This document shows positions 1 to 20,623 of a stretch of 64,000 nt of DNA, one piece after another. The position numbers and the translations under genes are program-made. Below the pieces are notes generated by a model. It ran no database searches. It saw only the letters and a program-made list of their open reading frames with translations, and had not been told where the DNA came from. The stretch's first letter is position 1; every line of letters begins with the position of its first letter. The DNA lies in the NCBI GenBank assembly GCA_017656145.1, contig JACDOI010000004.1, forward strand, positions 17,850 to 81,849, read 5' to 3'. This stretch comes from Bacillota bacterium (GTDB lineage: Bacteria; Bacillota; Limnochordia; Limnochordales; ZCTH02-B6).

Positions 1-629
1 TCAACCGGGTGGTTCGCTTCGGCCTCGTGATGACGCTGGTGTTGACGTTCGGGATCGATATGATCTTGCAAAACGGCGCCTTGCTTCTCTGGTCGGCGGA
101 CTACCGCTCCATCACGCCGGCGTACGCGGGCCAGGGACTTGCCGCGGGCGGGGTCATGATCCCGTATGTTCGGCTGGCGGTATTCGTTTTGGCGGTGCTG
201 TTCGTCGCCCTTTTTTCGCTGTTTTTGTCGAGAACCCGGATGGGGAACGCCATCAAGGCCACGGCCCTGAATCCGTTTGCCGCCGAGCTGAACGGCGTCC
301 GCATCCAGCGGGTCTACGCCCTGACGTACGCGATCGGGGCCGCCCTGGCCGCGGCCGCCGGCTCCATGGTGAGCGTCGTGTACACGATCCATCCGCAGGT
401 GGGCAACGTGTTTCTCACCCGGGCGTTCGTCATCACCGTCCTCGGGGGCCTGGGCAGCATCCCCGGGGCTCTGCTCGGCGGAGTCATTCTGGGGCTTGCC
501 GAGAGCTTGGCGACGGTCACGGTGGGCATCGGCTGGTCTGAAGCCATCTCTTTTACGCTTTTGGTCGCGATCTTGATCGTTAGGCCCCAGGGGCTGTTGG
601 GCAAGCGGTTCTTCGGCGGCGTCGGCTAA
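1..629 (+). CDS. livH: Branched-chain-amino-acid-type ABC transporter permease (LivH family), 5' end outside window
   Basis: The frame of ORF 9..629 stays open to base 1. The sequence is polytopic and Gly/Ala/Leu-rich (GGLGSIPGALLGGVILGLAESL). LivM/LivG/LivF-type genes follow. Confidence 0.8.
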   Translation, partial: NRVVRFGLVMTLVLTFGIDMILQNGALLLWSADYRSITPAYAGQGLAAGGVMIPYVRLAVFVLAVLFVALFSLFLSRTRMGNAIKATALNPFAAELNGVRIQRVYALTYAIGAALAAAAGSMVSVVYTIHPQVGNVFLTRAFVITVLGGLGSIPGALLGGVILGLAESLATVTVGIGWSEAISFTLLVAILIVRPQGLLGKRFFGGVG

Positions 630-655
630 AGCCGGGCCCGTCGCGGAGGTGATTA

Positions 656-1654
656 TTGGTGAACGGATCATCCATGGGACGCCGGGGCGCCGGCCTGATC
701 CTTGGGGCGGTGGTCCTAGCGGCCCTCGTCTTGCCACCGTTTTATCTTTCGGGATACTGGGTCCGGGTCATCACCGGTCTGTTGATGTACGGGGCGCTGG
801 CGTCGGCCATCAACATCATGGTGGGGCTCGCGGGCTACCCGGCCCTCGGCAACATCGTGTTTTTCGGCACCGGCGCGTACACCGTCGCGGTGCTGATGGT
901 CAAGGCGGACACTCCGTTCTTCTTGGCCTTGGCGGTGGCCGGGGTGGTGGCCGCGGTCTATGCGGCGCTGCTTGGCGCCGCGGTGTTGCGGCTGCGGGGG
1001 GCGTACTTTTCCATCGCCACCATCGGCATCAACCACGCGACCAGCGAGCTGGTGACGAACCTGGACGGCCTCACCGGCGGCGGGCGGGGGACCATCGTGC
1101 CGTTTTTCCCGGGCAGCATCGAGGCGGAGCGGATGTTCTTTTACTTTCTCATGTTGGCCTTGATGCTCTTGGCCACGGGCACCGTCTACCTCATTTCCCG
1201 TAACCGGCTCGGCTACGGCTTGCGGGCCATCAAAGCCGACGAGCAGGCGGCCAGCGTTATGGGCGTCAACACCACCCGGTACAAGGTTTTGGCCTGGACC
1301 ATTTCCGCGGGGCTGACGGGTCTTGTGGGCGGGGCGTATGCGTACTGGCTCGCCTTTTTGGAGCCGCCCTACGTCTTTGACATCGTCATGTCGGTGAAGG
1401 TGTACATCATGGCCATCCTGGGCGGCGCGGGCACCGTCATCGGACCGGTAGTGGGGGCGTTTTTCCTGGAACTTTTGTCTGAGCTCATCTGGGGGCGGTT
1501 CCTGGAAGCCCACATGCTCGTTTTGGGCATCGTCGTCGTCCTGGTGGTGCTGTTTGTGCCCCGGGGATTTGTGGACTTGGCCGGGCGGCTCGCGCGGGCG
1601 CTGGCCGGCGGTTCGGCAAGCCGCCGGGCGGAGGGGGTGCGGTCCGATGGGTGA
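656..1654 (+). CDS. livM: Branched-chain-amino-acid-type ABC transporter permease (LivM family)
   Basis: 332-aa polytopic ORF. GGAGGTG lies just upstream of TTG 656. The gene sits between LivH-like and LivG-like genes. Confidence 0.8.
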   Translation: MVNGSSMGRRGAGLILGAVVLAALVLPPFYLSGYWVRVITGLLMYGALASAINIMVGLAGYPALGNIVFFGTGAYTVAVLMVKADTPFFLALAVAGVVAAVYAALLGAAVLRLRGAYFSIATIGINHATSELVTNLDGLTGGGRGTIVPFFPGSIEAERMFFYFLMLALMLLATGTVYLISRNRLGYGLRAIKADEQAASVMGVNTTRYKVLAWTISAGLTGLVGGAYAYWLAFLEPPYVFDIVMSVKVYIMAILGGAGTVIGPVVGAFFLELLSELIWGRFLEAHMLVLGIVVVLVVLFVPRGFVDLAGRLARALAGGSASRRAEGVRSDG

Positions 1655-2402
1655 TCGGGCGCTTTTGGTCGGCCGGGGCGTCACCCGCTACTTCGGCGGC
1701 GTGGCCGCGGTGACCGATGTGGACTTTGAGGTGCGCGAGGGCGAGGTACTGGGCCTCATCGGTCCTAACGGCGCCGGCAAGACGACGCTGATGAACTTGA
1801 TCAGCGGCCTCATCCCCTTGAGCAAGGGCGAGATGGTGTTCGACGGGCGCCGGCTCAACGGCCTGGGCCCGTGGGACGTGGCCCGGCTCGGCATCGCCCG
1901 CACGTTCCAGATCGTAAAGCCCTTCGCCGGCATGACGCTGCGGGAAAACGTCGCCTTGGGGGCCATGTTCGCCCGCGAAGGCCGCGGCGTGCCGGCCCGC
2001 CAGGCGCTGGAAGTCGCCGCCGAAGTGCTCGAAACGGTGGGCTTGGGCGACCGGATGAATGCCCACGCGAATGAGCTGACCATCGCGCTGCGCAAGCGGC
2101 TCGAACTCGCCCGGGCCCTGGCGCTCAAGCCCCGGCTCTTGCTTTTGGACGAGGTGATGGCCGGACTCAACTTAAAGGAGATCGAGCGGCTGATCGAGCT
2201 CATCCGAACGATCAACGCGTCCGGCGTCACCATTGTCGTCATCGAGCACGTCATGAAAGCCATCATGGCCATTTCCCACCGGATCGTCGTGTTGCATTAC
2301 GGCCGCAAGATCGCTGAAGGCACCCCGGAGGAAGTGGCCCGGGACGAGCGGGTCATCACGGCCTACCTGGGACGGCGGTTCGGCCAGGGGAAGGGAGCGT
2401 GA
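1647..2402 (+). CDS. livG: ABC transporter ATP-binding protein (LivG family)
   Basis: ATG 1647 overlaps the livM stop. Walker A is GPNGAGKTT, Walker B is LLLLDEVMAGL, and the C-terminal ITAYLG tail is typical of LivG. The longer tracked ORF start at 1554 lies inside livM and was rejected. Confidence 0.85.
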   Translation: MGDRALLVGRGVTRYFGGVAAVTDVDFEVREGEVLGLIGPNGAGKTTLMNLISGLIPLSKGEMVFDGRRLNGLGPWDVARLGIARTFQIVKPFAGMTLRENVALGAMFAREGRGVPARQALEVAAEVLETVGLGDRMNAHANELTIALRKRLELARALALKPRLLLLDEVMAGLNLKEIERLIELIRTINASGVTIVVIEHVMKAIMAISHRIVVLHYGRKIAEGTPEEVARDERVITAYLGRRFGQGKGA

Positions 2403-3133
2403 GCCTTGTGGTGTCGGAGCCGCTTTTGCGGGTCGAGGGGCTGGAAGTAGCCTACGGCGAAGTGCAGGTGCTTTGGGGCCTCGATCTGGCGGTGGCCGAG
2501 CAGGAAGTGGTGGCCCTGGTGGGCTCCAACGGCGCCGGAAAAACGACGACGCTCAAGGCGCTGGCCGGCGCCTTGCGGCCCCGGGCCGGGCGCATCGTCT
2601 TTGAGGGGCGGGACATCACCGGCCGGCCGGCCGCGGACGCGGTGCGCACCGGCATCGTCCTCGTGCCCGAAGGACGGCAACTGTTTGCCGGCATGAGCGT
2701 CCACGAAAACCTGATGATGGGCGCCTACGCCCGCCAGGACGGGATGGGAGCCATCCGCCAAGACCTGGACTGGGTGTATGAGCTGTTCCGGGAACTGGCC
2801 AAAAAGCGGGGTCAGCTCGCGGGGACGTTGAGCGGCGGCGAACAGCAAATGTGCGCCATCGGCCGGGGTCTCATGGCCAAACCCCGCCTTTTGCTGCTCG
2901 ATGAGCTCTCGCTGGGGCTTGCACCGGTCATCGTCGACCGGCTGGTGGAGATCGTCACCCGCATTCACCGGGAGCGGGGACTCGCCATTCTCCTGGTGGA
3001 GCAGGACCTGAACGTCGCACTGGCCATGGCCGGCCGCGGATACGTCCTGGAAACCGGCCGGCTCGTCCGCTCCGGCGCCGCCGAAGAGCTTTTGGCCGAC
3101 GAAGCGGTGCGGGCCGCGTACTTGGGCATGTAG
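2399..3133 (+). CDS. livF: ABC transporter ATP-binding protein (LivF family)
   Basis: Walker A GSNGAGKTT, signature LSGGEQQM, Walker B LLLLDELSLGL. The start overlaps the livG stop. Confidence 0.85.
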   Translation: MSLVVSEPLLRVEGLEVAYGEVQVLWGLDLAVAEQEVVALVGSNGAGKTTTLKALAGALRPRAGRIVFEGRDITGRPAADAVRTGIVLVPEGRQLFAGMSVHENLMMGAYARQDGMGAIRQDLDWVYELFRELAKKRGQLAGTLSGGEQQMCAIGRGLMAKPRLLLLDELSLGLAPVIVDRLVEIVTRIHRERGLAILLVEQDLNVALAMAGRGYVLETGRLVRSGAAEELLADEAVRAAYLGM

Positions 3134-3158
3134 GATTCGGCACAAGGAGCTCGGCGGG

Positions 3159-4439
3159 ATGGGCGTCGTTGAGGATCGGCTTCTGGAGCAGCTTTTGCGG
3201 ATAAACAGCATTGGTGCGACGCTCGAGGGCGGCGTGACGCGCCTGGGCTATTCGGCCGAAGAGGAGGAAGCGGTGGCCCTCGTCGAGGGATGGATGCGGG
3301 AGCTGGGCCTCGATGTGCGCCGGGACGCGGCCGGCAACTTGTACGGGCGGCGGTCGGGGCGCGCGGACGGCCCGGCGGTGTTGACCGGCTCCCACCTTGA
3401 CTCGGTGCCCAACGGCGGCAAGTACGACGGCGCGGTAGGCGTGTTGTGCGCCCTGGAAACCGCTCGCCGGTTGGTCGAGGAAGACATCCTTACCGAGCAT
3501 CCTGTGGAAGTCGTCGTCTTCCGGTGCGAAGAGTCCAGCCGCTTCGGCGCCGCCACCTTGGGCAGCCGGGCGGTGGCCGGAACGTTGTCGGTCGAAGATT
3601 TGCACCGGCTGCGGGATGCGGCCGGCACCACCGTGGCTCAGGCCATGCAGGCCTTGGGGCTTGATCCCCGCCGGGTGAGCGAGGCCCGGAGGGACCCAAG
3701 CTCGATCCGGGCGTTCGTCGAAGTCCACGTCGAGCAGGGCACCGTGCTCGAAACCGAGGGTTGCCCCATCGGCGTCGTCACCCACATCGCCGCGCCCACC
3801 CGCTACCGGGTCCGGGTCAGCGGCGAGGCGGCCCATTCCGGCGCCACTCCCATGGACCGGCGCCGGGACGCGCTCGCGGCCGCGGCCGAAATCGTTCTCG
3901 CCGTCGAGCAGGCCGCCCGGGAGGAAAGCCCCAACGGCACCGTGGGCACCGTCGGCGTGTTGACCGTTCGCCCGGGGGCCATGAACGTCGTCCCGGGCGA
4001 TGCGGAGATGGGCATCGACATCCGCAGCATCGACGGCGCCAGCAAGGCCAGGGCCGTCGCCCGGGTGCTGGCCGCGATGGATGACGTCGCCCGCCGGCGG
4101 GGGGTAAAAATCACCCGGGAGCTGTTGGTGGAGGAGGAGCCCGCGGCTATGCATCCCCTGGTCCTGGAGGGCATTGAGAGGGCGGCCCGGGATGCGGGCT
4201 TGAACGCTCGCCCCATGGCTAGCCCCGCCGGCCACGACGCGATGCATATGGCTCGCATCGCGCCGGCGGGCATGGTGTTTCTCCCAAGCCGCGACGGCGC
4301 GAGCCACAACCCGCTGGAGTACACCGACATCGAAGATGTGGCGGCGGGGGCCGAGGTGCTGTTTCGGACCGTTTGCCGCCTGGCAAAAGCCGAGGAAACC
4401 GGCTTCGAGACTGCCGAATCGAGGAGGAAGGGCGCATGA
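3159..4439 (+). CDS. M20-family Zn amidase of the hydantoinase/carbamoylase group (allantoate amidohydrolase / N-carbamoyl-amino-acid hydrolase / beta-ureidopropionase type)
   Basis: The motifs GSHLDSVPNGGKYDGAVGV and CEESSRFG, and the 426-aa length, match this amidase family. Confidence 0.8.
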   Translation: MGVVEDRLLEQLLRINSIGATLEGGVTRLGYSAEEEEAVALVEGWMRELGLDVRRDAAGNLYGRRSGRADGPAVLTGSHLDSVPNGGKYDGAVGVLCALETARRLVEEDILTEHPVEVVVFRCEESSRFGAATLGSRAVAGTLSVEDLHRLRDAAGTTVAQAMQALGLDPRRVSEARRDPSSIRAFVEVHVEQGTVLETEGCPIGVVTHIAAPTRYRVRVSGEAAHSGATPMDRRRDALAAAAEIVLAVEQAAREESPNGTVGTVGVLTVRPGAMNVVPGDAEMGIDIRSIDGASKARAVARVLAAMDDVARRRGVKITRELLVEEEPAAMHPLVLEGIERAARDAGLNARPMASPAGHDAMHMARIAPAGMVFLPSRDGASHNPLEYTDIEDVAAGAEVLFRTVCRLAKAEETGFETAESRRKGA

Positions 4440-5878
4440 CGGATCTTTGGGTGAGGGGAGGCACGGTGGTCACCGCCCGGCGCACCTTTCCTGGCGACGT
4501 GCTGGTGCGGGACGGGCGCATCGCGGCCGTCGTCGAGCGGACATCGGGCGGGGCCCCGTTTTCGCCCTCGGGAGACGTGCGGGTGCTGGACGCATCGGGG
4601 CTTTACGTCTTGCCGGGGCTTGTCGATGTGCACGTGCACTTCCGCGAGCCGGGCTTGACGCACAAGGAAGACTTTTCGACCGGAACCGCCGCGGCCGCGT
4701 GCGGCGGCGTCACCACGGTGCTCGAGATGCCCAACACCGATCCGCCCGTCAGCCGGCCGGCGATTCTCGACGCCAAGGCGGCCCGGCTGGCCGGCCGGGC
4801 GTACGTGGACTACGGGCTGTACGCGGTGATTGACGAGAGCAACTACGCGGAGCTGCCGGGGCTGGCGGCCGCCGGAGCCATTGCGTTTAAGCTGTTTCTT
4901 GGGCCCACCACCGGCGATATCCGCGCTCCGGGCTGGGGCCGGCTCATGGAGGTGTTTGAGACGGTGGCCCGCCTGGGGCTTCCCCTGGTCGTCCACGCGG
5001 AAGACCGGGACGTCATCGAGTATTGGCAAGCCCGCGTCGCACAGGAGGCCGCCGGCGGTGACGCCCAGGACGTTCCCGGCCAGGCAAGCGCCGGCCCGGC
5101 GGGCGCCGCAGGCGTTGACTACCGGCGGTTTCTCGCCACTCGCCCTCGCTTCGGCGAGGTCGCGGCCACCCAGACCGTGTGCCTTTTGGCCGGTTTTTCC
5201 GGCGCCCGGGTTCACATCGCCCACGTGAGCATCGCACAGAGCGTGGACATCATCCGGGAGGCCAAAGACCGGGGCGCGCCCGTGACGGCCGAGACGTGCC
5301 CGCCGTATCTTCTCATGACGGCCGAAGACTGCGAGCGCTTGGGACCCGTGGCCAAGATCTTGCCGCCCATCCGGGATGCGGCCGACCGGGACCGGCTTTG
5401 GCAGGGGCTGGCCGAGAACACCCTCGACATCATCGCGACCGACCACGCGCCGCACCTTTCCGAAGAAAAGGAAGGCAAACCGTGGCTCACCGCCCCGGGG
5501 GGCATGATCGGCGTCGAGACGCTTCTTCCGGCGCTGCTCACCGAGGCGAGCCGGGGCCGGCTGTCCCTCAACCAGCTGGTTCGCTGGACCAGCACCCGGC
5601 CGGCGGAGATCTTCGGCCTGGCCCCTCGCAAGGGCGACATCCGGCCCGGCGCCGATGGCGATCTGGTGCTGGTCGATCCCGGTGCCCGCTGGACTGTGCG
5701 GGCGGAAGACTTGCACAGCAAAAGCAAAGCGAGCCCCCTTCTCGGAACGGAACTTGTGGGGCGGGTCGTCCACACTGTCCTGAGGGGACAAGTCGTCGTG
5801 GAGGACGGCCGGCTCGTTTCCGGGCCGCTGGGCGAGCGGCTTCTGCCGTCCGATCCCGGCGGACAAGGCAAGGAGTGA
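4436..5878 (+). CDS. Cyclic amidohydrolase, dihydroorotase/dihydropyrimidinase-like
   Basis: ATG 4436 overlaps the upstream stop (ATGA). It carries the metal-site signature DVHVHFREPG..KED..TGTAAAACGGVTTVLEMPNT. The tracked start at 4373 lies inside the upstream gene. Confidence 0.8.
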   Translation: MTDLWVRGGTVVTARRTFPGDVLVRDGRIAAVVERTSGGAPFSPSGDVRVLDASGLYVLPGLVDVHVHFREPGLTHKEDFSTGTAAAACGGVTTVLEMPNTDPPVSRPAILDAKAARLAGRAYVDYGLYAVIDESNYAELPGLAAAGAIAFKLFLGPTTGDIRAPGWGRLMEVFETVARLGLPLVVHAEDRDVIEYWQARVAQEAAGGDAQDVPGQASAGPAGAAGVDYRRFLATRPRFGEVAATQTVCLLAGFSGARVHIAHVSIAQSVDIIREAKDRGAPVTAETCPPYLLMTAEDCERLGPVAKILPPIRDAADRDRLWQGLAENTLDIIATDHAPHLSEEKEGKPWLTAPGGMIGVETLLPALLTEASRGRLSLNQLVRWTSTRPAEIFGLAPRKGDIRPGADGDLVLVDPGARWTVRAEDLHSKSKASPLLGTELVGRVVHTVLRGQVVVEDGRLVSGPLGERLLPSDPGGQGKE

Positions 5879-5883
5879 CGGCG

Positions 5884-6765
5884 ATGGCACTGGCCGGCCA
5901 ATCCGCACAAACCCGTCAGCCCGGAAAGCCCGCTCAGCCGGGGGAAGCCCGTCAGGCCGAGGAAGCCCGGAAGCCCGCCCCCTGGCACATGGTGACGGGC
6001 ACCGTGCGGTCCAACCGCCCCGCGGGAAGCGGCTATTACCGGCTCATTGTCCACGCCAAGCCTGTGGCCGCGGCCTGCCGTCCCGGGCAGTTCGTCATGT
6101 TGCGGGCGCCCGAGTGGGGGGCGCTGGTGTTCTCCCGGCCGTTCGACGTCTACCGTTCGGATCCGGAGTCCGGCACGGTGGAGATCCTGTTCAAGCTCAA
6201 AGGCGAGGGCACCCGGCGCCTCGCGGCCCTGGTCGAGGGCGAACAAGTGCGCGTCCTGGGACCCCTCGGGCGGCCGGTGCCGCTGCCTGACGACGGCCGG
6301 GGCGTCATCCTGGTGGCCCGGGGCGCGGGCGTCTCGCCCATGGTGCGCATCGCTCAAGAATGCGCGGCCCGGGGCGTGGCCGCCCGGGCGCTCGTCTCGG
6401 CCGCCCGGCCCGATCGGCTGATGGGAGTCGACGATTTGCGGGCGCTCGGCGTCGATGTCCACGTGACGACCGACGACGATGGGGCCGCGCCGGCTCCCGC
6501 CGCGGTCCTTGGCCGGTGGGCCAAAGAAGGCCGCTGGCACGGGATGTTCGTGTGCGGCTCCCGCCGCCTGGCCCGGGCTGCCCGCTGGGCCTGCCGGGAG
6601 TACGGCCTTTCGGGCTACGTCTTTGTTGAGGCTACCATGGCGTGCGGGTTCGGCATCTGTCACGGATGCGCCGTCCCCATCAACGACGGCGGCGGGAGCC
6701 GGCCGTACGCGCTGGCGTGCGTGGACGGCCCCGCGTTGCCCATTGAAACCGCCACCATCGAATGA
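5884..6765 (+). CDS. PyrK-like FAD/2Fe-2S electron-transfer subunit
   Basis: AAGGAG sits 10 nt before ATG 5884. The body is ferredoxin-reductase-like (QFVMLRAP..FSRPF), and the C-terminal Cys cluster CGFGICHGCAV...C matches PyrK. The tracked 528-aa ORF from 5179 overlaps the upstream gene and was trimmed. Confidence 0.75.
   Translation: MALAGQSAQTRQPGKPAQPGEARQAEEARKPAPWHMVTGTVRSNRPAGSGYYRLIVHAKPVAAACRPGQFVMLRAPEWGALVFSRPFDVYRSDPESGTVEILFKLKGEGTRRLAALVEGEQVRVLGPLGRPVPLPDDGRGVILVARGAGVSPMVRIAQECAARGVAARALVSAARPDRLMGVDDLRALGVDVHVTTDDDGAAPAPAAVLGRWAKEGRWHGMFVCGSRRLARAARWACREYGLSGYVFVEATMACGFGICHGCAVPINDGGGSRPYALACVDGPALPIETATIE
5917..5970 (+). repeat. Three imperfect tandem 18-bp units inside the 5' end of the PyrK-like gene
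   Basis: The units are cagcccggaaagcccgct / cagccgggggaagcccgt / caggccgaggaagcccgg, read directly. They encode QPGKPA-QPGEAR-QAEEAR. Confidence 0.8.
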
Positions 6766-7760
6766 GAGGAAGTGCCAGTATGGAAGGCGGATTTCAACCC
6801 GATCTGTCCGTGCGGATCGGCCCGCTGGAATTGAAGGCGCCGGTCATGCCGGCTTCCGGCTGCTTCAACGCCGGCCGGGAGGTGGCCCACGCGTTCGATC
6901 TCGGACAGATGGGTGCGATCATCAACAAGACCGTCATGCCCGGATACCGGCCCGGCAACCCGCCCCAGCGGATCCTGGAGCGGGCGTCAGCCATGATCAA
7001 CTCCGTCGGCCTTCCGGGCAAAGGGCCGGAGGATTTTCTCAACAACCAGCTGCCGTTCATGCGCTCTGTGGGCACCCGGGTCATCGTCAGCATCGGGGGC
7101 TTGAGCGAAGCCGATTTCGCCCAGCTCGCGGCGCTCATGGATGAGCAGCCCGGCATCGACGGGCTGGAGCTCGACCTATCGCGCCCCAATCACGTGGAGC
7201 GGGAGCCGTTTGCCCTGAGCGCCAAGCTCACCGCGGGCGTCGTGCGGGCGGTGCGGCGGGCCACCCGGCTGCCGGTCATCGCGAAGCTGGCTCCCAACGT
7301 CAGCGACATCGTGAGCATCGCGGCCGCCGCCATGGAGGCCGGGGCCGACGCCTTGTGCGTAGCCAATACGTATCCGGCGATGGGGATCGACATCGAAGCG
7401 CGCCGGCCCATCCTGGGCATGGCCACCGGCGGGTTGTCGGGGCCGGCCGTCAAACCGATGACCCTGCGGCTCGTCTGGCAGATCGCCGGCGCCCTGGATG
7501 CCCCGGTCATCGCCTGCGGCGGCGTGTCGACGGCCGAGGATGCGCTGGAGTACTTGCTTGCGGGGGCCAAGGCGGTCCAGGTGGGAACCGCGAACTTTTC
7601 GAATCCCTGGACCATCCCGCAGGTCATCGACGGCATCCGCGAGTACCTCCGGCGGCACGACATTGCCCGGGTCGAATCCATCATTGGCGCTGCGCAACCT
7701 TTCCGGACGGACGGCTCCGGCGCGCCGGCGCAAGCGGGGGGTACCGCTTGGCGCGCTTGA
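6762..7760 (+). CDS. Class-1B dihydroorotate dehydrogenase-like / dihydropyrimidine dehydrogenase-like catalytic subunit
   Basis: TIM-barrel flavoenzyme motifs are present: LELKAPVMPASGCF, NSVGLPG, VIVSIGG, IAKLAPN, GGLSGPAVKP, ACGGVSTAEDALEYLLAGA. An alternative start is ATG 6780. Confidence 0.8.
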   Translation: MRGSASMEGGFQPDLSVRIGPLELKAPVMPASGCFNAGREVAHAFDLGQMGAIINKTVMPGYRPGNPPQRILERASAMINSVGLPGKGPEDFLNNQLPFMRSVGTRVIVSIGGLSEADFAQLAALMDEQPGIDGLELDLSRPNHVEREPFALSAKLTAGVVRAVRRATRLPVIAKLAPNVSDIVSIAAAAMEAGADALCVANTYPAMGIDIEARRPILGMATGGLSGPAVKPMTLRLVWQIAGALDAPVIACGGVSTAEDALEYLLAGAKAVQVGTANFSNPWTIPQVIDGIREYLRRHDIARVESIIGAAQPFRTDGSGAPAQAGGTAWRA

Positions 7761-8968
7761 CCGTGGCCAAAGCGTTGACGCTGCCCGCCCTGCGGGGCAC
7801 CCGGGTCTTGGCCGGGCACGACGCCCTGGACCGGATCATCGATTGCGCCACCGTCATGGAAGTACCCAATGTGGCTCAGTGGCTCCGGGGCCACGAACTG
7901 CTCCTCACCAGCCTCTACGCGCTGCGCCACGACCCAGACCGGCAAGTGAAGCTCGTCGCGGACCTCGCGCGGGTGGGCGTGTCCGCGCTCCTGATCAAGC
8001 CGAAAGTGTTTGTGGAGCGCTTGCCCGAGAAGATGCTGGCCGAGGCCGACGGGCAAAGCTTGCCGGTGCTCGAGCTGCCGGTGGAAACGCCTTACATCGA
8101 CGTGCTGAACGCGGTCATGGCGGAGATTTTCCGGCGCAACAGCGTCCGGCGGTACGAGGCGGACCTGGTCGACGACCTGCTGGCCGGCGCCATCACCTCC
8201 CCCGAGGAGCTCCGGACCCGGGCGGCGGAGGTGGGCTGGGATCCGTCCGGCGCCGCGGTCGCGGCGGTGCTGCAAGTCGAGCCGCCTGAAAGCGATCCCG
8301 GCTGTGAAACCGTCCAGCAGCTATGCGATACGGTTGTGGACGCCGTGCGGGCCATCGCCCGGCTTCGCAACGGGATCGTAGCAGGTAGCGGATCCTGGGT
8401 GCGGGTCGTTTTCGCCTCCGGCCGCCTTTCGGTCGAAAGCCTTGCCGCCGCGGCGCGCGGGGTCGTCCTCGGGGCGCGGAACTCGCTCGCGGCGCGGCGG
8501 GCCGGCCCGGCGGTGTCGGGCGCCATCGGCGATCCGGTTCCCAGCGTCTGGCAGCTGCCTGAAAGCTACCAAGCGGCTTGCCGGCACCTGGCCGTCGCCC
8601 GCCGGGTGCGGAACTCCGGCGTCGTGGCGGACCGGCGGGATCTGGGCGTCTACGCCCTGCTGGCGCCGGCCCGCGAGCGGCCCTTAAACCCGGGCCTCGT
8701 CCGGCTCCTCGAGTACGACGCGAAGGGACACGGTCAACTGGTCAAAACGCTTCGCTGCTACCTCGACGAGCGGGGCAATGCCCGGCGGGCCGCAGCCCGG
8801 CTGTTCGTTCACTTCAAAACGGTCCAGTACCGCATGCGGCGCATCCGCGAGATCACCGGCTGGGATCTGAGTTGCCCCGAACTGCGGCTTGAGATCGAAG
8901 TCCAGCTCCGCTGGCTGGAGATGGCCGGATTCGGCCGGAAAGGCGCGACCGGGCCGGGTGCGGGCTGA
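7748..8968 (+). CDS. PucR-family transcriptional regulator
   Basis: It has a C-terminal PucR-type HTH (LVKTLRCYLDERGNARRAAARLFVHFKTVQYRMRRIREITG) and an N-terminal purine-catabolism-regulator-like domain (ALTLPALRGTRVLAGHDALDRII). The start is ambiguous (TTG 7748 / TTG 7757 / GTG 7763). The tracked start at 7355 lies inside the upstream gene. Confidence 0.75.
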   Translation: MARLTVAKALTLPALRGTRVLAGHDALDRIIDCATVMEVPNVAQWLRGHELLLTSLYALRHDPDRQVKLVADLARVGVSALLIKPKVFVERLPEKMLAEADGQSLPVLELPVETPYIDVLNAVMAEIFRRNSVRRYEADLVDDLLAGAITSPEELRTRAAEVGWDPSGAAVAAVLQVEPPESDPGCETVQQLCDTVVDAVRAIARLRNGIVAGSGSWVRVVFASGRLSVESLAAAARGVVLGARNSLAARRAGPAVSGAIGDPVPSVWQLPESYQAACRHLAVARRVRNSGVVADRRDLGVYALLAPARERPLNPGLVRLLEYDAKGHGQLVKTLRCYLDERGNARRAAARLFVHFKTVQYRMRRIREITGWDLSCPELRLEIEVQLRWLEMAGFGRKGATGPGAG

Positions 8969-9050: not shown

Positions 9051-9257
9051 GTGGCTGAGATCACCCAACCGGAACTACAGCACTTGCACGAGCTCATCTG
9101 GATGGAAGCGGCCATGTACGAGAAGTTCCGCTATTACGCGGAAACATCGCCGGAATCCCACGTGCGCAAGCTGTGCGACCAGCTGGCCGACCGCAGCCGC
9201 CAGCACCTGACCGCCTTGGACGCCTTGCTGGGCGGCGGGACCGGCCGCGCGCACTGA
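9051..9257 (+). CDS. Small helical protein, possibly CotF-related
   Basis: GGAGGTGAG precedes the GTG at 9051. It is a 68-aa helical ORF adjacent to a Coat-F-like gene. No firm family assignment is possible. Confidence 0.35.
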   Translation: MAEITQPELQHLHELIWMEAAMYEKFRYYAETSPESHVRKLCDQLADRSRQHLTALDALLGGGTGRAH

Positions 9258-9293
9258 CCGCGCCTATTCAATGGGGAGAAGGGGGAACCGGTC

Positions 9294-9626
9294 ATGGAGA
9301 TGGACGAGCGGGCCGTTTTGCGGGATTGCCTGGACACCCTCAAGCACGCGTCCGCGTGCTACCTGCAGGCGAGCCTCGAAGCGGATTCCGATGAGTTAGG
9401 CCGGACGCTGGGCCGGCTGGCGCTGGACAAGAGCGAAGAGAAAACCGCGGTCTTCAACCTCATGCATCAGGCGGGCTTTTACAAGACCCGGCCGGCCGAG
9501 ATGGAAGCTGTGCAGGAGCTCAAGCAAGACCTTCACCGGTTGTTGGCCCGGATCGGCGCCAGCACCGCCGCGAACCGGGAGCGGGGACTCCCGGCTGGCC
9601 GTTCCGAGCAGCATCCTTACTCGTAA
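9294..9626 (+). CDS. Coat F domain (spore coat protein F-like) protein
   Basis: The N-terminal DERAVLRDCLDTLKHASACYLQASLEA pattern resembles the CotF family four-helix domain. Confidence 0.5.
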   Translation: MEMDERAVLRDCLDTLKHASACYLQASLEADSDELGRTLGRLALDKSEEKTAVFNLMHQAGFYKTRPAEMEAVQELKQDLHRLLARIGASTAANRERGLPAGRSEQHPYS

Positions 9627-9770: not shown

Positions 9771-10985
9771 TTGCCCGTGGTGCAGTTATGGCTGTTGGCT
9801 CTTGCCCATTTCGGCATCGATTTGCTCACCCACATCCTCCCGCCGGTGATGCCCGCGCTCGTCCAAGAGCTCGGTCTCACCGTGACCATGGCCGCGTCCC
9901 TCTCAACGGCCATGAGCGTCAGCAGCGGGCTGTTGCAGCCGGTGTTCGGCTCCGCCATCGACCGCGCGCCCCGGGCCTGGCTGCTTCCGGTCGCGGTCTT
10001 GTGGTGCGGTGCGTTCGTGGCGCTGTTGGGAATGGCGTCAGAGTACTGGGCGCTAGTGCTGGCTGCGGTGCTGGCAGGGCTTGGGGCCGCGCTGTTTCAC
10101 CCGCTGGCTACGGTGAGCTTGCGGCACATCGTTGGGCGGTACAGCGCGGGCGCCATGTCGATCTTCAGCGTCGGCGGCACCGCCGGCATGGCCGCCGCGC
10201 CCATGGCCTTTGCAGCGGTGAGCTTCATGGGGATTTCCGGGTTGCGCTGGCTCCTCTTGCCGGCCGTTGTGATCGCCGCGGTGTTGCTGGCCGGGGGGTT
10301 GCACCGCGTGTCGCTTTCCAGTACTGGCCGGCGGGCTGGCGCGGGTGGGGGGTCCCGTGAGGGTAGCGGAGGGCGCTCGGAAACCGAGGCGCCCGCCGGA
10401 CCCGACGCCATGCGCCCATTGGTGATTTTGACCGTGTCCAAGCTTGTGCGGACCGTGGGCCAGGTGGCCATGGTCAACTTCCTGGCGCTTTTTTACGTCT
10501 TCCAAGGGTATTCCGAGAATCACGCCCGGCTCATGCTCACCGTGTACCTTGTGGCGGGAAGCCTGAGCGCGATCGCGACCGGCTACATTTCCGATCGGAT
10601 CGGGCGCAAGCCGGTGGTCATCATATCCAGCGTCCTCGCGACCCCGGCTTGGCTGGCATTTTTGTTTACGACCGGTCCGCTCCAAACAGGGTGCTTGATC
10701 GCGGCCAGCGTCTTTTTGTACGCAACGTTTTCTGTCATGCCGATCTACGCGCAAGAACTGGTCCCGCGCCGGCCGGGCATGGGGGCGGGCCTGATGATGG
10801 GCGGCGTATGGGCCCTGGCGGCCTTGTGCCTCGTTCCTTTGGGAACGCTGGCCGACGCGGCGGGCGTGCGGGCGGCCATGGTTGTGGCGGCGTGGTTGCC
10901 CCTCGTCTCCGCGGGGATGGCCCTGCCGGTGCCGGAAACCCGGCCCCGGGCCTCGAGGTTGACATTTTCCTCCCGTTTGCTATAA
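9771..10985 (+). CDS. MFS transporter
   Basis: 404 aa with about 12 predicted hydrophobic segments and a central charged loop. Confidence 0.75.
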   Translation: MPVVQLWLLALAHFGIDLLTHILPPVMPALVQELGLTVTMAASLSTAMSVSSGLLQPVFGSAIDRAPRAWLLPVAVLWCGAFVALLGMASEYWALVLAAVLAGLGAALFHPLATVSLRHIVGRYSAGAMSIFSVGGTAGMAAAPMAFAAVSFMGISGLRWLLLPAVVIAAVLLAGGLHRVSLSSTGRRAGAGGGSREGSGGRSETEAPAGPDAMRPLVILTVSKLVRTVGQVAMVNFLALFYVFQGYSENHARLMLTVYLVAGSLSAIATGYISDRIGRKPVVIISSVLATPAWLAFLFTTGPLQTGCLIAASVFLYATFSVMPIYAQELVPRRPGMGAGLMMGGVWALAALCLVPLGTLADAAGVRAAMVVAAWLPLVSAGMALPVPETRPRASRLTFSSRLL

Positions 10986-10986
10986 T
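10959..10986 (+). promoter_or_regulatory. Consensus sigma-A-type promoter (TTGACA-16 nt-TATAAT) for the riboswitch/opu operon
   Basis: TTGACA at 10959-10964 and TATAAT at 10981-10986, read directly. It lies in the last codons of the MFS gene, about 25 nt upstream of the riboswitch. Confidence 0.7.
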
Positions 10987-11011
10987 AAATTCCAGGCAAA
11001 TAAAAGGCGTC

Positions 11012-11170
11012 GTGATCGGTCGCTGAGTTCTCCGGAAACGGAGAAGCGGGGGACCCGTTTTTCGGGGCGAGTCCGTGTGGGGTGCCGGTTTGGCGCGGCG
11101 CACGGTAGGGCAACGACCTCTGGCCCGAGCCCGTCAGCTAACCCCGTAAGCGAAGCAGAGGGAGTCTTGG
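11012..11170 (+). promoter_or_regulatory. c-di-AMP riboswitch (ydaO/yuaA class)
   Basis: It contains CGCUGAGUUCUCCGGAAACGGAGAAGCGGGGGACCCG, then GGGGUGCC, then CCCGAGCCCGUCAGCUAACCCCGUAAGCG. These match my recollection of the conserved ydaO blocks (GAGCGGGGGACCCA ... CCGAACCCGACAGCUAACCUCGUAAGCG). An osmoprotectant transporter lies downstream, a known target class. Confidence 0.85.
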
Positions 11171-11336: not shown

Positions 11337-12368
11337 TTGCGTGCCCTGCACACAAGGTGCGCCCGACGCTCGTCGTTGTTGGTGACTGCCCTTTCGTTGG
11401 CGGTTTTGCCCATCGGAGTATCCCTCGTTGGCACGGTCCAGTCTCACGCCCAGCCCGTCGTGTTCCTCGATTTCAGCTGGGACAGCGTCCAGGTTCACAA
11501 TCGCATCGCCGGCTTCATTCTCGAGCATGGCTACGGCATGTCCGTGGACTACTTGTTCGCGGACACCATCCCGGGCATGTTGGCCCTGCGGCGGGGCGAT
11601 GCGCAGCTTACTATGGAGATCTGGCCGGACAATATCATCGACATTTGGGAAACCGCCCTCCGCCGGGGTGAACTGGTCGACCTGGGGTTGAACTTCCCCG
11701 ATGCCCCCCAGGGCTGGTACGTGCCCACGTACATGATCGAAGGCGACCCCGAGCGAGGCATCGAGCCGATGGCTCCGGACTTGCGGTCCGTGGCGGATCT
11801 TCCCCGGTACTGGGAGCTGTTCCGGGATCCGGAAGTTCCCAGCAAGGGCCGGTTTTACACCGCACCGCCGGGCTGGGCGGCTAACGATATCAACCGCGAG
11901 AAGTTGGAAGCGTACGGGCTGCTGGACACGTTTGTGGCGTTTGAGCCCGGATCCGACTCGGCGCTGGTGGCGTCTATGGTGTCCGCCTACGAGCAGGGGA
12001 AGCCGTGGGTCGGCTACTATTGGGAGCCCACCTGGGTGATGGGCCTGTACGACATGACATTGTTGGAGGAGCCGCCTTATTCGGACGAGTGCTGGGAGAC
12101 GGATAAGGCATGCGCCTACAAGCGCGCGCAGGTGCTGGTCTCGGCCAACAAGCGATTCATCGAGCAGCACCCGGAGATCGAGGCGTTCCTGCGCAACTAT
12201 GAGACGACGCTCGCACAAAACAACGACTTCCTGGCCTACATGAGGCGGGAGGACGCAACCGCTGAGGAAGCCGCCCTGTACTTCCTGCGAACCTACGAGG
12301 ACGTCTGGCGGTCATGGGTGCCCGAGGACGTGGCCGCGCGGGTGTTGGACGCGCTGGCCGCGCGCTGA
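11337..12368 (+). CDS. Glycine betaine/proline betaine ABC transporter substrate-binding protein (ProX/OpuAC type)
   Basis: GGAGG sits 9 nt before TTG 11337. There is a signal-like N-terminus, and the body is ProX-like (FSWDSVQVHNRIAGFILEHGYG..., WEPTWVMGLYD). Confidence 0.8.
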   Translation: MRALHTRCARRSSLLVTALSLAVLPIGVSLVGTVQSHAQPVVFLDFSWDSVQVHNRIAGFILEHGYGMSVDYLFADTIPGMLALRRGDAQLTMEIWPDNIIDIWETALRRGELVDLGLNFPDAPQGWYVPTYMIEGDPERGIEPMAPDLRSVADLPRYWELFRDPEVPSKGRFYTAPPGWAANDINREKLEAYGLLDTFVAFEPGSDSALVASMVSAYEQGKPWVGYYWEPTWVMGLYDMTLLEEPPYSDECWETDKACAYKRAQVLVSANKRFIEQHPEIEAFLRNYETTLAQNNDFLAYMRREDATAEEAALYFLRTYEDVWRSWVPEDVAARVLDALAAR

Positions 12369-12374
12369 GGGCGG

Positions 12375-13382
12375 GTGATGACGATGACCGCGAGCGCTGG
12401 CATACAGGTTAAGAACTTATGGAAGGTGTTCGCGCCCAAGGGTGTGACGATCGACGTGACCGATCCCGGCGCGATGGCTTCGGCGGAGCAAGCCGGCGCC
12501 GTCGTGGCGGTGCGGGACGTGTCCTTTGAGGTGCAGCCGGGAGAGCTGTTCGTCGTCATGGGGCTGTCGGGCAGCGGCAAGTCGACGCTCATCCGGTGCC
12601 TGTTGCGCCTGGTGGAGCCGACGGCCGGAACCATCGCGTGCGATGGACGGGATGTGACGGGCATGAGCCCCCGGGAGCTGATGGAGTTCCGGCGCCACCA
12701 GGTCGCCATGGTGTTCCAGCACTACGGGCTGTTGCCCCACCGGACGGTGCTCGACAACGCGGCCTTCGGCCTGAAGCTTCGGGGCATGCCGCGGGAAGAG
12801 CGCTACGCCCGGGCCCGGGAGGCGCTTGCGCGGGTGGGCCTTGCCGGCTGGGAAAACCGCTACCCGTCGGCCTTAAGCGGCGGCATGCAGCAGCGGGTCG
12901 GCATCGCGCGGGCGCTGGCCAACGACCCGGCCATCCTGCTTTGGGATGAGCCGTTCAGCGGCCTTGACCCGCTCATCCGGCGGGAGATGCAGGATGAAGT
13001 GTTGCGGCTCCAGCGGGAGTTGCAAAAGACCATCGTGTTCGTCACCCACGACCTGGATGAGGCGATGCGCCTGGGCGATCGGATGGCGGTCATGAAGGAC
13101 GGCCAGTTTGTGCAGGTGGGCCGGCCCGAGGACGTCATCAACCGGCCGGCCAACGAGTACGTGCGCCGGTTCGTGCAGGCCCGCCAGCCGGTTGCCGTGG
13201 CAACCGATCGGTCGGTGATGAAACTCGCCTCAGGCAACCCGCGTCCGCCGGCGGCCTCTCTGCCGGTCGGAAGCGCCGGACGGGGCGGACGGGCGGCTCA
13301 GGACGGCGCCGCGGCGGCGCGCGATGGCGCTTTGGCCGAGGACGCCCGGCCCGCCGGGGAGGGGGTAGCCCGTGTTTCCTAA
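12375..13382 (+). CDS. Glycine betaine/proline ABC transporter ATP-binding protein (ProV/OpuAA type), apparently without CBS domains
   Basis: Walker A GLSGSGKST, signature LSGGMQQRVGIARAL, Walker B ILLWDEPFSGLD. The C-terminal ~70 aa are low-complexity Ala/Gly/Arg rather than tandem CBS. Confidence 0.85.
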   Translation: MMTMTASAGIQVKNLWKVFAPKGVTIDVTDPGAMASAEQAGAVVAVRDVSFEVQPGELFVVMGLSGSGKSTLIRCLLRLVEPTAGTIACDGRDVTGMSPRELMEFRRHQVAMVFQHYGLLPHRTVLDNAAFGLKLRGMPREERYARAREALARVGLAGWENRYPSALSGGMQQRVGIARALANDPAILLWDEPFSGLDPLIRREMQDEVLRLQRELQKTIVFVTHDLDEAMRLGDRMAVMKDGQFVQVGRPEDVINRPANEYVRRFVQARQPVAVATDRSVMKLASGNPRPPAASLPVGSAGRGGRAAQDGAAAARDGALAEDARPAGEGVARVS

Positions 13383-14220
13383 AGAATGGGAGTATCACAT
13401 CGGCCCGGTCATCAGCGATCTGGTCGATTGGCTCCTGGTCGAGTTCGGCGGTGCGTTCGACGCGGTGTCGGGCGCCCTCCTGCGGTTTTTGCTCCAGGTG
13501 GAAGCGGCGCTCAAGGCGTTGCCGTGGTGGCTCATCATCGCGGCCGTGGGCGTTGGGGCCTGGCTCCTTTTGCGCCGGGTGGGCAGCGCTTTGGCCCTCA
13601 TGGCCCTTGTGTTCATGATCGGCGTGTTCGGCCTGTGGGGGCTGGCGGTGGAAACGATGGCCATCATCATCACGTCGGTGGTGCTGGCCATCGTCATCGG
13701 CCTTCCGGTAGGCGTTGCCATGGCCGAGTCCAACCGGGTGCGCGGCGCGATGACGCCGCTTTTGGACGCCATGCAGACGCTGCCGAGCTTCGTCTACCTG
13801 ATCCCGGCCATGATGCTCTTTGGCCTGGGTAAGGTGCCGGCGGTGCTGGCGACGCTCATTTACGCGGTGCCGCCGGTCATCCGGTTGACGGACCTGGGCA
13901 TCCGCCAGGTGGCGGCCGGGGTGCAGGAGGCCGCGGTCGCGTACGGCGCGAGCCGCTGGCAGCTCTTGAAGGAAGTACGGTTGCCGCTGGCGGTGCCGTC
14001 GATCTTGGCCGGTGTCAACCAGACGACCATGATGGCGCTTGCCATGGTTGTCATTGCGTCCATGATCGGCGCCCGGGGCATCGGCCAGGAAGTGCTCTTG
14101 TCCATCAACCGCATCGACGTGGGCCGGGGGTTTGAGGCGGGGCTGAGCGTGGTGGCGCTGGCCATCGTCGTCGACCGCCTCACGCAAGGATTCGCCCGCC
14201 GGTTTGAACCCCCGCGCTGA
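13372..14220 (+). CDS. Glycine betaine/proline ABC transporter permease (ProW/OpuAB type)
   Basis: It has the BPD-type permease EAA loop (EAAVAYGASRWQLLKEVRLPLAVPSILAGVNQ). The start overlaps the ATPase gene's stop. Confidence 0.85.
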   Translation: MFPKEWEYHIGPVISDLVDWLLVEFGGAFDAVSGALLRFLLQVEAALKALPWWLIIAAVGVGAWLLLRRVGSALALMALVFMIGVFGLWGLAVETMAIIITSVVLAIVIGLPVGVAMAESNRVRGAMTPLLDAMQTLPSFVYLIPAMMLFGLGKVPAVLATLIYAVPPVIRLTDLGIRQVAAGVQEAAVAYGASRWQLLKEVRLPLAVPSILAGVNQTTMMALAMVVIASMIGARGIGQEVLLSINRIDVGRGFEAGLSVVALAIVVDRLTQGFARRFEPPR

Positions 14221-15682: not shown

Positions 15683-15892
15683 AAGCTTGACCCGCCTTTC
15701 GCTGTTTTGGCCGGCCGGGCCGGCCACAAGGCACGTCCTATCTGTTTAGTCATCGCGAGTGGCCTTCCTTCCCCCCTTTCGGGGCTCGGAGTGAGAGCTC
15801 AGAGGCAGAACGGGAGTAAAGGATGTGGACGCAGCGCGTGGGCAAGGGCGCAGGCGCAGGAGGACTGGGGCAGGTACGGAATATCAACCGAC

Positions 15893-19924: not shown

Positions 19925-20026
19925 CCGCACGATCGGCGCTTGATCCAAAACCGATGGCCGGATGCGAAGCCCGCTTGTCCGAGGCGCGAGCGCTCCATGA
20001 TATACTGAACGCGGAGGCGGTGAGCG

Positions 20027-20587
20027 ATGGACTGTACGGTTCATGGTGTGCGGCTGGAACTCGTTCAGGGCGACATCGCCCGCCAACCGGACATGGAGGC
20101 CATTGTCAACGCGGCCAACGCCGAGCTCATGCCGGGCGGCGGTGTGGCGGGGGCGATCCACCGGGCGGCCGGGCCGGGACTGGCCGAGGAATGCCGGCCG
20201 CTTGGGCCCATCCGGCCCGGTGAAGCGGTCATCACCGGCGGCCACAATTTGCCCAACAAGTACGTCATCCACTGCTTGGGCCCCGTGTACGGCGTGGACG
20301 AACCGTCGGACGAGCTGTTGGCCCAATGCTACCGGCGGGCGCTGGCACTGGCCGAGGAGCGGGGCATTCGATCTGTCGGCTTTCCCTCCATCTCCACCGG
20401 CGCATTCGGCTTTCCCATGGACCGCGCGGCGACCGTCGCGTTTCGCACGATGTTGGAGCAGATCCCCCGGTTGCGCACGGTGAACCACATCCGTTTCGTG
20501 CTGTGGGGCGCGGACGCGCTGCGCACGCACGAGGCGGCGCTCTCCCGGTGCTTGGAGGAGGCCGGGCTTCCGAGCTCCGAGGGCTGA
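20027..20587 (+). CDS. Macro domain protein (O-acetyl-ADP-ribose deacetylase-like)
   Basis: Motifs VQGDIA, IVNAANAELMPGGGVAGAIHRAAGP and FPSISTGAFGFP. Confidence 0.85.
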   Translation: MDCTVHGVRLELVQGDIARQPDMEAIVNAANAELMPGGGVAGAIHRAAGPGLAEECRPLGPIRPGEAVITGGHNLPNKYVIHCLGPVYGVDEPSDELLAQCYRRALALAEERGIRSVGFPSISTGAFGFPMDRAATVAFRTMLEQIPRLRTVNHIRFVLWGADALRTHEAALSRCLEEAGLPSSEG

Positions 20588-20598
20588 CAAGCCGCATC

Positions 20599-20623
20599 GG
20601 TCCCGTCCGGGGAGGGGCCTTTT
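20599..20623 (+). terminator. Putative intrinsic terminator after the macro-domain gene
   Basis: The stem is ggtccc/ggggcc (one G-U pair), the loop is 9 nt, and tttt follows. Confidence 0.45.

Follow-up and report, generated by a model that had tools for sequence, protein, structure and literature searches.

A nine-gene block at positions 1–8968 of the 64-kb stretch of Limnochordales DNA analyzed here (the window) is best interpreted, albeit with slightly less than even confidence, as a PucR-controlled operon that would serve to take up orotate, or a 6-carboxy-pyrimidine very close to it, and to break it down by reduction and hydrolysis. In the proposed pathway, a HAAT-type ABC importer would take up the ring acid, and a PyrK-like (FAD, [2Fe-2S]) and PyrD-like (FMN) pair would reduce its C5=C6 bond with NADH, as the class-1B enzyme of Clostridium oroticum does. 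A dihydroorotase-type enzyme would then open the ring hydrolytically to give an N-carbamoyl-L-amino acid (from orotate, this would be N-carbamoyl-L-aspartate), and an M20 amidase would strip the carbamoyl group to yield L-aspartate (or a substituted aspartate), CO2 and ammonia, with the PucR regulator controlling expression. Every enzymatic step of this route is inferred from the sequence, and it is built on the gene content and coupling of the block, on a gene order conserved in relatives, and on family memberships and active-site motifs, all of which were observed directly. The nine genes are as follows.

1–629, plus strand: LivH-like permease (Pfam BPD_transp_2, 87.6 bits), its 5' end cut by the window edge with ~77 codons missing
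656–1654, plus strand: LivM-like second permease (BPD_transp_2, 117.6 bits), starting at TTG 656 or GTG 659 after a GGAGGTGA ribosome-binding site
1647–2402, plus strand: LivG-like ABC ATPase (Pfam ABC_tran and BCA_ABC_TP_C)
2399–3133, plus strand: LivF-like ABC ATPase (Pfam ABC_tran)
3159–4439, plus strand: M20 hydantoinase/carbamoylase-family amidase of 426 residues (TIGR01879, NF006771)
4436–5878, plus strand: dihydroorotase-type binuclear-metal cyclic amidohydrolase of 480 residues (TIGR00857 pyrC_multi and motifs)
5884–6765, plus strand: PyrK-like FAD/[2Fe-2S] electron-transfer subunit of 293 residues (Pfam DHODB_Fe-S_bind)
6762 or 6780–7760, plus strand: class-1B PyrD-like FMN subunit of 332 residues from ATG 6762 or 326 residues from ATG 6780 (NF005574)
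7748 or 7757–8968, plus strand: PucR-family transcription regulator, starting at TTG 7748 or TTG 7757 and overlapping the PyrD stop

The block has a G+C content of 68.5% and is tightly packed, and its third-position GC of 0.8–0.9 tracks exactly the nine called frames, all of them intact and with a strong coding signal. Stops and starts overlap as ATGA at the M20/dihydroorotase and PyrK/PyrD junctions and as GTGA at LivG/LivF, LivM and LivG overlap by 8 nt, a 5-nt gap separates the dihydroorotase-type gene from the PyrK-like gene, and the remaining gaps reach up to 25 nt. Ribosome-binding sites lie inside preceding genes (for the PyrK-like gene, AAGGAG in the end of the amidohydrolase gene), and the PyrD-like ATG at 6780 is preceded by GAGGAAG. 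A promoter and terminator consensus scan inside the block gave nothing above the shuffled expectation. The gene content and tight coupling described in the original prediction, which had been made by reading the letters and open reading frames (ORFs) of the same DNA, were both borne out by the Pfam and NCBIfam matches, the frames and the junctions. Its statement that no pyrB, carAB, pyrF, pyrE or pyrR lies nearby likewise held in Pfam scans of the larger ORFs of the window, which in the other 55 kb revealed transporters for sugars and osmolytes, a methylase, an exopolysaccharide island and the like.

The main argument for a carboxylated ring comes from the cyclic amidohydrolase. It passes the broad pyrC_multi model TIGR00857 (332.6 vs a cut-off of 279.05), falls under the cut-off of all the narrower PRK-type dihydroorotase equivalogs, and keeps the dihydroorotase set HxHxR, MPNT and DHAPH, including the PyrC-type MPNT motif on which the original prediction had leaned:

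4631–4654, plus strand: HVHFREPG
4727–4738, plus strand: MPNT
4883–4891, plus strand: AFK, the carboxylated-Lys position
5438–5455, plus strand: TDHAPH

The Arg of HxHxR, the Asn of MPNT and the second His of DHAPH we take to be the binders of the dihydroorotate carboxylate, as in the structures of CAD and the E. coli dihydroorotase. Retention of this set argues for a substrate that bears a carboxylate where dihydroorotate does, and against dihydrouracil and allantoin. The same residues are kept in the relatives of the locus and in most (over 100) of its 120 nearest homologues, among them many that carry the NCBI name 'allantoinase AllB'. The amidohydrolase fails the dihydropyrimidinase/D-hydantoinase models (TIGR02033, 272.7 vs 393.25; NF009941, 278 vs 647) and the ErtD model (278 vs a cut-off of 650). 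HxHxR, MPNT and DHAPH are missing from its second-best solved structure, the L-hydantoinase 1gkr, and the hydantoinase-type neighbors at two other loci (L003 and L056) do not have the dihydroorotase motifs either. A homologue 50% identical to the window enzyme occurs in a different setting on contig FZPS01000100.1 of GCA_900198705.1 (L098, 7220–11347), directly after a radical-SAM lysine-2,3-aminomutase-like (LAM_C) gene and a gene for a 473-residue protein with no Pfam match, and with no PyrK/PyrD or pyr genes near; this context hints at another use of the amidohydrolase family.

The M20 amidase passes TIGR01879 (430 bits vs a cut-off of 204) and the 'allantoate amidohydrolase' subfamily model NF006771 (466 vs 399). 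Among function-specific models the nearest is that of the N-carbamoyl-L-glutamate amidohydrolase ErtE (419 vs a cut-off of 520). The best solved relative is the Geobacillus L-N-carbamoylase 3n5f (350 bits over the full length), followed by ureidoglycolate hydrolase (276), E. coli AllC (227) and two beta-alanine-forming enzymes (212 and 176 bits). A reasonable candidate for the substrate would be an N-carbamoyl-L-amino acid whose side chain is acidic, and we propose that the enzyme may act as an amidohydrolase of N-carbamoyl-L-aspartate or of an analogue. We know of no reference sequence for an N-carbamoyl-L-aspartate amidohydrolase (ureidosuccinase, EC 3.5.1.7). In the M20 tree, the amidases linked to such clusters do not group together, and the tree provides no argument for a shared specificity. 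A second, unrelated M20 peptidase of 475 residues is encoded 5 kb downstream of the operon (window 14315–15745, minus strand).

These two hydrolases are the basis on which automatic annotation would assign the locus to allantoin (purine) catabolism, as an 'allantoinase AllB' and an 'allantoate amidohydrolase' under a PucR regulator. We consider this assignment highly improbable, in spite of the NF006771 match, the NCBI names of the relatives, a regulator family named for purine catabolism, and a score above the cut-off of the allantoinase model TIGR03178. That score is borderline (359.7 vs 357.85), two other allantoinase models are far from reached (NF004839, 354 vs 631; NF005960, 253 vs 688), and the M20 enzyme fails the AllC equivalog TIGR03176 (296 vs 598). 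At the aligned sites, the best-matching solved allantoinase (3hm7) shows HFNEPG, MPLNS and DHSPS, a pattern replaced in the window protein by that of dihydroorotases. Moreover, allantoin breakdown would leave the conserved PyrK/PyrD-like pair without a role, and no ureidoglycine or ureidoglycolate enzyme was identified in the loci examined. The borderline model score, the wrong residues and the idle reductase led us to reject it.

The reductase pair is of the class-1B type. The PyrD-like protein passes NF005574 (328.9 vs 269) and TIGR01037 (282.3 vs 270), and aligns end to end with the PyrD subunit of the Lactococcus lactis dihydroorotate dehydrogenase B (DHODB; 1ep1, 238 bits by HMMER). The PyrK-like protein matches DHODB_Fe-S_bind (39.4 vs 23.9), has four Cys ligands (CGFGICHGC...CVDGP, 6643–6732), and scores 20.8 vs 21.1 with Pfam FAD_binding_6; against the PDB it finds the PyrK homologue 4ylf (82 bits) and the L. 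lactis PyrK (72 bits). Its stop overlaps the first possible PyrD start, and the pairing of the two genes is kept across the loci of this PyrD-like subfamily that were examined, except for the Nitrospinota-type L006, L007 and L012.

A reductase, a cyclic amidohydrolase and an M20 amidase would also suit reductive uracil/thymine degradation, in which they would be the dihydropyrimidine dehydrogenase (DPD), the dihydropyrimidinase and the beta-ureidopropionase. The known Pyd clusters (PydA/PreA-PreT or ferredoxin-dependent PydAc, the dihydropyrimidinase PydB and the beta-ureidopropionase PydC; PMC7332683) follow the same logic of reduction, ring opening and decarbamoylation with enzymes of homologous superfamilies (dihydroorotate dehydrogenase (DHOD)/DPD, cyclic amidohydrolase, M20 amidase), and M20-type beta-ureidopropionases do exist (e.g. 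8c46). The window reductase, however, pairs a class-1B PyrD with PyrK, scores only 132 bits with the PreA model (vs 329 bits with the PyrD model), and has no Fe-S ferredoxin domain in the Pfam scan, in agreement with the earlier remark that it lacks the 4Fe-4S domains of PreA-type enzymes. The Arg/Asn/His set of the amidohydrolase binds a carboxylate that uracil does not have, the enzyme fails the dihydropyrimidinase model, the hydantoinase-type neighbors at L003 and L056 are without its motifs, and the amidase is nearer to L-alpha-carbamoylases than to the beta-alanine-forming enzymes. We rejected the uracil/thymine route, a very unlikely one, on the amidohydrolase residues, the excess of the PyrD over the PreA score and the missing Fe-S domains. 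Of the two routes weighed in the original prediction, this leaves the one through dihydroorotate and N-carbamoyl-aspartate in favor.

The importer was called Liv-type in that prediction, and its two permeases and two ATPases are indeed in the window; a binding protein is not. The best NCBIfam matches of the LivH-like permease are UrtB and LivH, both far under their cut-offs; the ATPases reach 200 bits vs a cut-off of 362 with the LivG model and 250 vs 441 with the LivF model, and every one of the LivHMGF and UrtBCDE equivalogs stays under its cut-off. In two related loci (L017 and L097, described below), a Peripla_BP_6 binding protein (3912–5126 in L097) is encoded directly upstream of LivH, and the window LivH is 88% identical to that of L017. 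Two BPD_transp_2 permeases and two ATPases, with the binding protein seen through these relatives, give the composition of a HAAT-type importer. The regulator matches Pfam PucR (117 bits), GGDEF_2 (44 bits) and HTH_30 (77 bits), all above cut-off, and reaches the cut-off of no function-specific NCBIfam equivalog.

The gene order recurs at 60–88% amino-acid identity on the contigs L017 (from a metagenome) and L097 (from ENA), and partially on four shorter contigs (L008, L009, L011 and L016) from Limnochordales and other Bacillota metagenome-assembled genomes. In L017 and L097, the full locus runs from an ornithine-cyclodeaminase/mu-crystallin-family (OCD) gene and an MFS transporter, which are located further upstream of the binding protein in the same direction, through the binding protein, LivHMGF, M20, dihydroorotase-like, PyrK-like and PyrD-like genes to PucR. 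The PucR gene is kept after PyrD in all six loci. Such retention of the order in relatives indicates a conserved unit rather than a chance neighborhood. The OCD-family proteins of L017 and of an independent cluster (L050, see below) have as best models an uncharacterized OCD family and the archaeal alanine dehydrogenase, both below cut-offs; one may speculate that this neighbor oxidatively deaminates the amino-acid product, returning NADH.

Scanning metagenomes with the M20 amidase, and searching further from there, also brought up independent clusters of similar composition in unrelated Bacillota:

L050 (32% G+C): MFS, PucR, M20, PyrK, PyrD, dihydroorotase-like, PGA_cap-like, OCD-family
L066: TRAP DctM, PyrD, M20, PyrK
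Bacillus CP012600.1: MFS, IclR, PGA_cap-like, M20, PyrK, PyrD, dihydroorotase-like
Brevibacillus humidisoli CP087263.1: DctP, DctQ, DctM, PucR, PyrK, PyrD, M20, dihydroorotase-like

The Bacillaceae and Brevibacillus operons, on which the searched literature held no paper, share with the window the four enzyme families, a transporter, a regulator of the PucR or IclR type, the motifs of dihydroorotases (as checked in L050) and, in L050 as in L017 and L097, an OCD/mu-crystallin neighbor. Their amidohydrolase is present in many cultured Bacillaceae, in genomes where it is annotated 'allantoinase AllB'. The operons differ from the window in that their PyrD has the canonical ELNISCPN motif and pocket and forms its own clade in the PyrD tree, their M20 amidases are not sisters of the window amidase, and an MFS or TRAP transporter takes the place of the ABC importer. 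In the two comparisons made, with L050 and L066, the window PyrD showed 41–45% identity, and its amidohydrolase and M20 amidase are 31% and 40% identical to those of L050. The separate PyrD and M20 clades imply that the four-family module was assembled more than once, and this repeated independent assembly speaks for a shared chemical logic. As regards the Brevibacillus transporter, TRAP systems are restricted to carboxylate ligands (PMC4646407), and there is a structure of a TRAP binding protein with bound orotate (4NN3). Bacillus-type clusters additionally encode a PGA_cap-family protein (L050, 8359–9675; L100, 5698–6996), for which the best NCBIfam model in L050 is the lasso-peptide C-terminal Trp epimerase MslH (284 vs 700); it may be an epimerase in the Bacillus-type module.

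Several observations weigh against orotate itself, and against some of the individual assignments. The PyrK-like protein is under every curated PyrK cut-off (NF000799, 112 vs 314; NF004862, 115 vs 220). The ureidosuccinase role of the M20 enzyme is suggested only by its genomic context and its nearness to ErtE. The L097 binding protein has no informative solved homologue (best match 106 bits), and the Brevibacillus DctP is not specifically closest to 4NN3, which is its sixth-best match (171 vs 208 bits). No paper that ties such a cluster to orotate use was obtained from the literature searched, nor any relevant one on an orotate-degradation gene cluster, on ureidosuccinase or on PyrK with dihydropyrimidinase. 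Further points concern the PyrD-like protein, which belongs to a sharply set-apart subfamily. A search of 5.8 billion protein clusters returned 16 clusters of this subfamily, at 360–712 bits and 54–100% identity, with canonical PyrD proteins at no more than 302 bits; in all but one of the 16, the motif ELDLSCPNH replaces the canonical ELNISCPNV. A motif scan of 185,579 species genomes (one genome per species) found just 8 loci of this type, and the motif is absent from the best 150 representatives of a 1.84-billion-protein library, which yielded no additional member of the subfamily. In a neighbor-joining tree (our trees are distance trees without support values, and this one is without bootstrap), the subfamily forms one clade beside the canonical class-1B enzymes, with the window protein as the deepest branch of the Limnochordales group. 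A phylogeny of the three paralogs had been proposed along with the original prediction; the PyrD-like one, with the remodelled pocket of its whole subfamily, is not an ordinary paralogue.

The pocket changes that run through the subfamily are, in L. lactis DHODB numbering, Asn132 to Asp, Val138 to His, Gln77 to Pro, and Leu-Met to Tyr-Pro at 199–200 after Asn-Thr. Lys48, Asn72, Asn137 and the Asn before Thr198 are kept in the window protein, and Asn132, presumably among the conserved asparagines that form hydrogen bonds with the pyrimidine ring in the L. lactis DHOD structures, is not. Asp132, His138, Tyr-Pro and Pro77 together point to a changed specificity. In the window genome alone, moreover, the loop reads LDLSRPN, with Arg at the position of the class-1 catalytic Cys. 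The codons concerned are:

7173–7175, plus strand: Asp codon replacing Asn132
7182–7184, plus strand: CGC (Arg) codon at the class-1 catalytic Cys position (Cys135 of L. lactis DHODB, by HMMER alignment to 1ep1)
7191–7193, plus strand: His codon replacing Val138

With the pocket remodelled and the catalytic Cys gone in the window, orotate is not secured as the substrate; an orotate-type route, as originally predicted, is still the one we favor.

The pocket residues make room for an alternative in which the chemistry is the same and the substrate is another carboxylated cyclic ureide (e.g. 5-hydroxy- or 5-amino-orotate or a related ring acid), to which the PyrD pocket would be tuned. We regard it as unlikely, though worth serious consideration. 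The four changes are fixed subfamily-wide and absent from the PyrDs of both the canonical type and the Bacillus-type clusters, and the extreme rarity of the subfamily also counts in its favor. Its distant members are found beside GntR, D-Ser-dehydratase/BhcC-like, BhcD-like, CoA-transferase and QueC genes, a neighborhood that also counts against orotate, and the BhcC-like and BhcD-like homologues would fit a 3-substituted aspartate product. On the other hand, the BhcC and BhcD matches are far under their cut-offs, the amidohydrolase retains the full carboxylate-binding set of dihydroorotases, Bacillus-type clusters of the same composition have canonical PyrD pockets, and no candidate natural substrate is known. 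A broader form of the idea, in our view a rather doubtful one, is that the ELDLSCPNH PyrK/PyrD-like pairs may be a new specificity class of flavin ring reductase, acting on an N-heterocyclic carboxylate not yet recognized as a microbial nutrient. If this were true, with a substrate such as a 5-hydroxy- or 5-amino-orotate-like compound that is converted to a substituted aspartate, the operon in Limnochordales would represent the first complete route for its use. Among the distant members, the PyrK/PyrD-like pairs of L003/L004 (9144–12185) and L005 (4695–16534) sit beside a D-Ser-dehydratase-family gene, whose best model in L005 is the 3-hydroxy-D-aspartate aldolase BhcC (below cut-off). L005 also has an OCD-family gene (best model the iminosuccinate reductase BhcD, below cut-off), an M20 amidase and a dihydroorotase-like gene.

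The Arg at position 135 raises the further possibility, improbable in our judgment, that the operon is decaying or non-functional in the window genome, a relic with a reductase inactivated by the loss of Cys, irrespective of what the ancestral substrate was. Class-1 enzymes rely on this Cys as their catalytic residue; it is present in all 15 other clusters of the subfamily (as TGT or TGC), and among the best 150 library representatives, 138 of the 139 counted motif matches have Asn...Cys and the remaining one Asp...Cys. The CGC codon is a single T-to-C change away, and the window protein, to the further detriment of the orotate reading, deviates at 5 of the 114 subfamily-invariant columns, compared with 0–2 in other group-A members. 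Against decay, four of these five changes are conservative, all nine frames are intact with a strong coding signal, and the window lineage is simply the deepest branch of its group. It is, besides, an Arg that donates the proton in soluble fumarate reductases. The CGC may also be an error of sequencing or consensus calling: the other assembly that shows it, the Logan contig L001, does not differ from the window over 5,910 nt and may come from the same reads, in which case it is no independent evidence. Either the base call is wrong, or the reductive step in the window genome is probably impaired or altered; the amidohydrolase and the M20 amidase could still work on imported dihydroorotate or carbamoyl-aspartate.

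Rarity and the missing Cys bear equally on the simplest explanation of all, that ordinary biosynthetic pyrC, pyrK and pyrD genes were placed here by chance, which we hold to be extremely improbable. As in a Bacillota pyr operon (pyrB, pyrC, carAB, pyrK, pyrD, pyrF, pyrE), PyrC-, PyrK- and PyrD-type genes stand side by side and the PyrD and PyrC family models are passed, and our view of the pyr genes of this genome is limited to the 64-kb window. Yet none of pyrB, carAB, pyrF, pyrE or pyrR accompanies them among the ORFs scanned, an essential enzyme would not have Arg at its catalytic Cys, and the canonical PyrK-PyrD pair examined for comparison sits among housekeeping genes, unlike the present pair with its conserved linkage to a hydrolytic M20 enzyme, an importer and PucR. 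The rare subfamily, this linkage and the missing Cys led to its rejection. The catabolic, non-biosynthetic character originally predicted for the block is thus supported: the linkage is kept in relatives, has analogues in Bacillus and Brevibacillus, and involves a PyrD subfamily too rare for housekeeping.

The closest precedent for the favored orotate-type route is the orotate fermentation of C. oroticum, in which an NADH-linked class-1B dihydroorotate dehydrogenase, a dihydroorotase and ureidosuccinase act in turn, as established by biochemistry from the 1950s. To our knowledge, no gene cluster has been assigned to this fermentation, and the searched literature yielded none. The comparison is therefore made at the level of reactions: the same three reaction types would occur in the same order, with a PyrD and PyrK reductase of the class-1B type, a ring-opening enzyme with dihydroorotase residues and an N-carbamoyl-L-amino-acid amidase present at the locus. 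The differences lie in the altered PyrD pocket (Asp132, His138, Tyr-Pro), in the Arg that stands for Cys in the window, and in the host, a high-GC Limnochordales-type spore former and not a member of the Lachnospiraceae. The C. oroticum enzyme is described as a class-1B, NAD-linked heterotetramer (Argyrou et al. 2000, as cited in PMC10395836).

Other known systems resemble the locus in part. Hydantoin utilization pairs a cyclic amidohydrolase (L-hydantoinase; 1gkr is the second-best structure) with an M20 L-N-carbamoylase, and ergothioneine utilization pairs the hydantoin-5-propionate amidohydrolase ErtD with ErtE, the nearest function-specific model of the window M20 enzyme. In contrast to the locus, these systems work without a flavin reductase; the ErtD and ErtE models are both under cut-off for the window proteins, and 1gkr does not have the dihydroorotase motifs. 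Barba et al. 2013 describe two uncharacterized families, X1 and X2, that are DHOD/DPD-like; these branch with DPD and have ygeW-type or PFOR neighbors, not PyrK, and they differ from the PyrD with PyrK found here.

The remaining features of the window lie outside the operon. A CoatF spore-coat gene follows PucR at 9051–9626, likewise in L001, L011, L016, L017 and L097, and is preceded in the window, L001 and L097 by a 68-residue ORF with no Pfam match. A cyclic di-AMP riboswitch (RF00379, 85 bits) at 11011–11167, within the region 10959–11167, comes after a perfect TTGACA-16-TATAAT promoter-like site, and an OpuAC/ABC glycine-betaine-type importer is encoded downstream of it (11337–14220). In the region 20024–29660, a direct repeat of ~700 nt (22588–~23290 and 28957–~29660, the first 400 nt 99–100% identical) brackets an N6/N4 DNA methylase (24617–25726) and a 627-residue ORF with no Pfam match (27043–28926), with a Macro-domain gene and an AAA_21 ATPase just upstream; this may be a defence or mobile island. 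Between ~40000 and 53000 the G+C content drops to 49–57% (vs 60–70% elsewhere) over an exopolysaccharide cluster with GT1, EpsG, two GT2, GT4 and a Wzy-type polymerase. Genes for UDP-glucose dehydrogenase, epimerase and sugar transferase lie on its flanks, and the stretch was probably acquired horizontally. A 226-residue ORF at 37337–38017 looks like a gene fragment: of a UDP-glucose/GDP-mannose dehydrogenase it has only the central domain and the beginning of the C-terminal one, and a full-length copy lies at 54839–56464.

Overall, the locus combines chemistry that is known with genes not yet assigned to it and with a reductase subfamily that is unusual. The breakdown of orotate via dihydroorotate and carbamoyl-aspartate has been known biochemically for some seventy years; as far as we know, and in the literature searched, no genes have been assigned to it, and ureidosuccinase has no sequence to its name. 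The locus, and still more its Bacillus and Brevibacillus counterparts, provide concrete candidate genes. Among the proteins that automatic annotation now calls 'allantoinase AllB', 'allantoate amidohydrolase' or 'dihydroorotate dehydrogenase', many are probably members of a different catabolic module. With its altered pocket, the rare PyrD subfamily, together with its natural Cys-to-Arg variant, would be a useful probe of substrate choice and proton transfer in class-1B enzymes.

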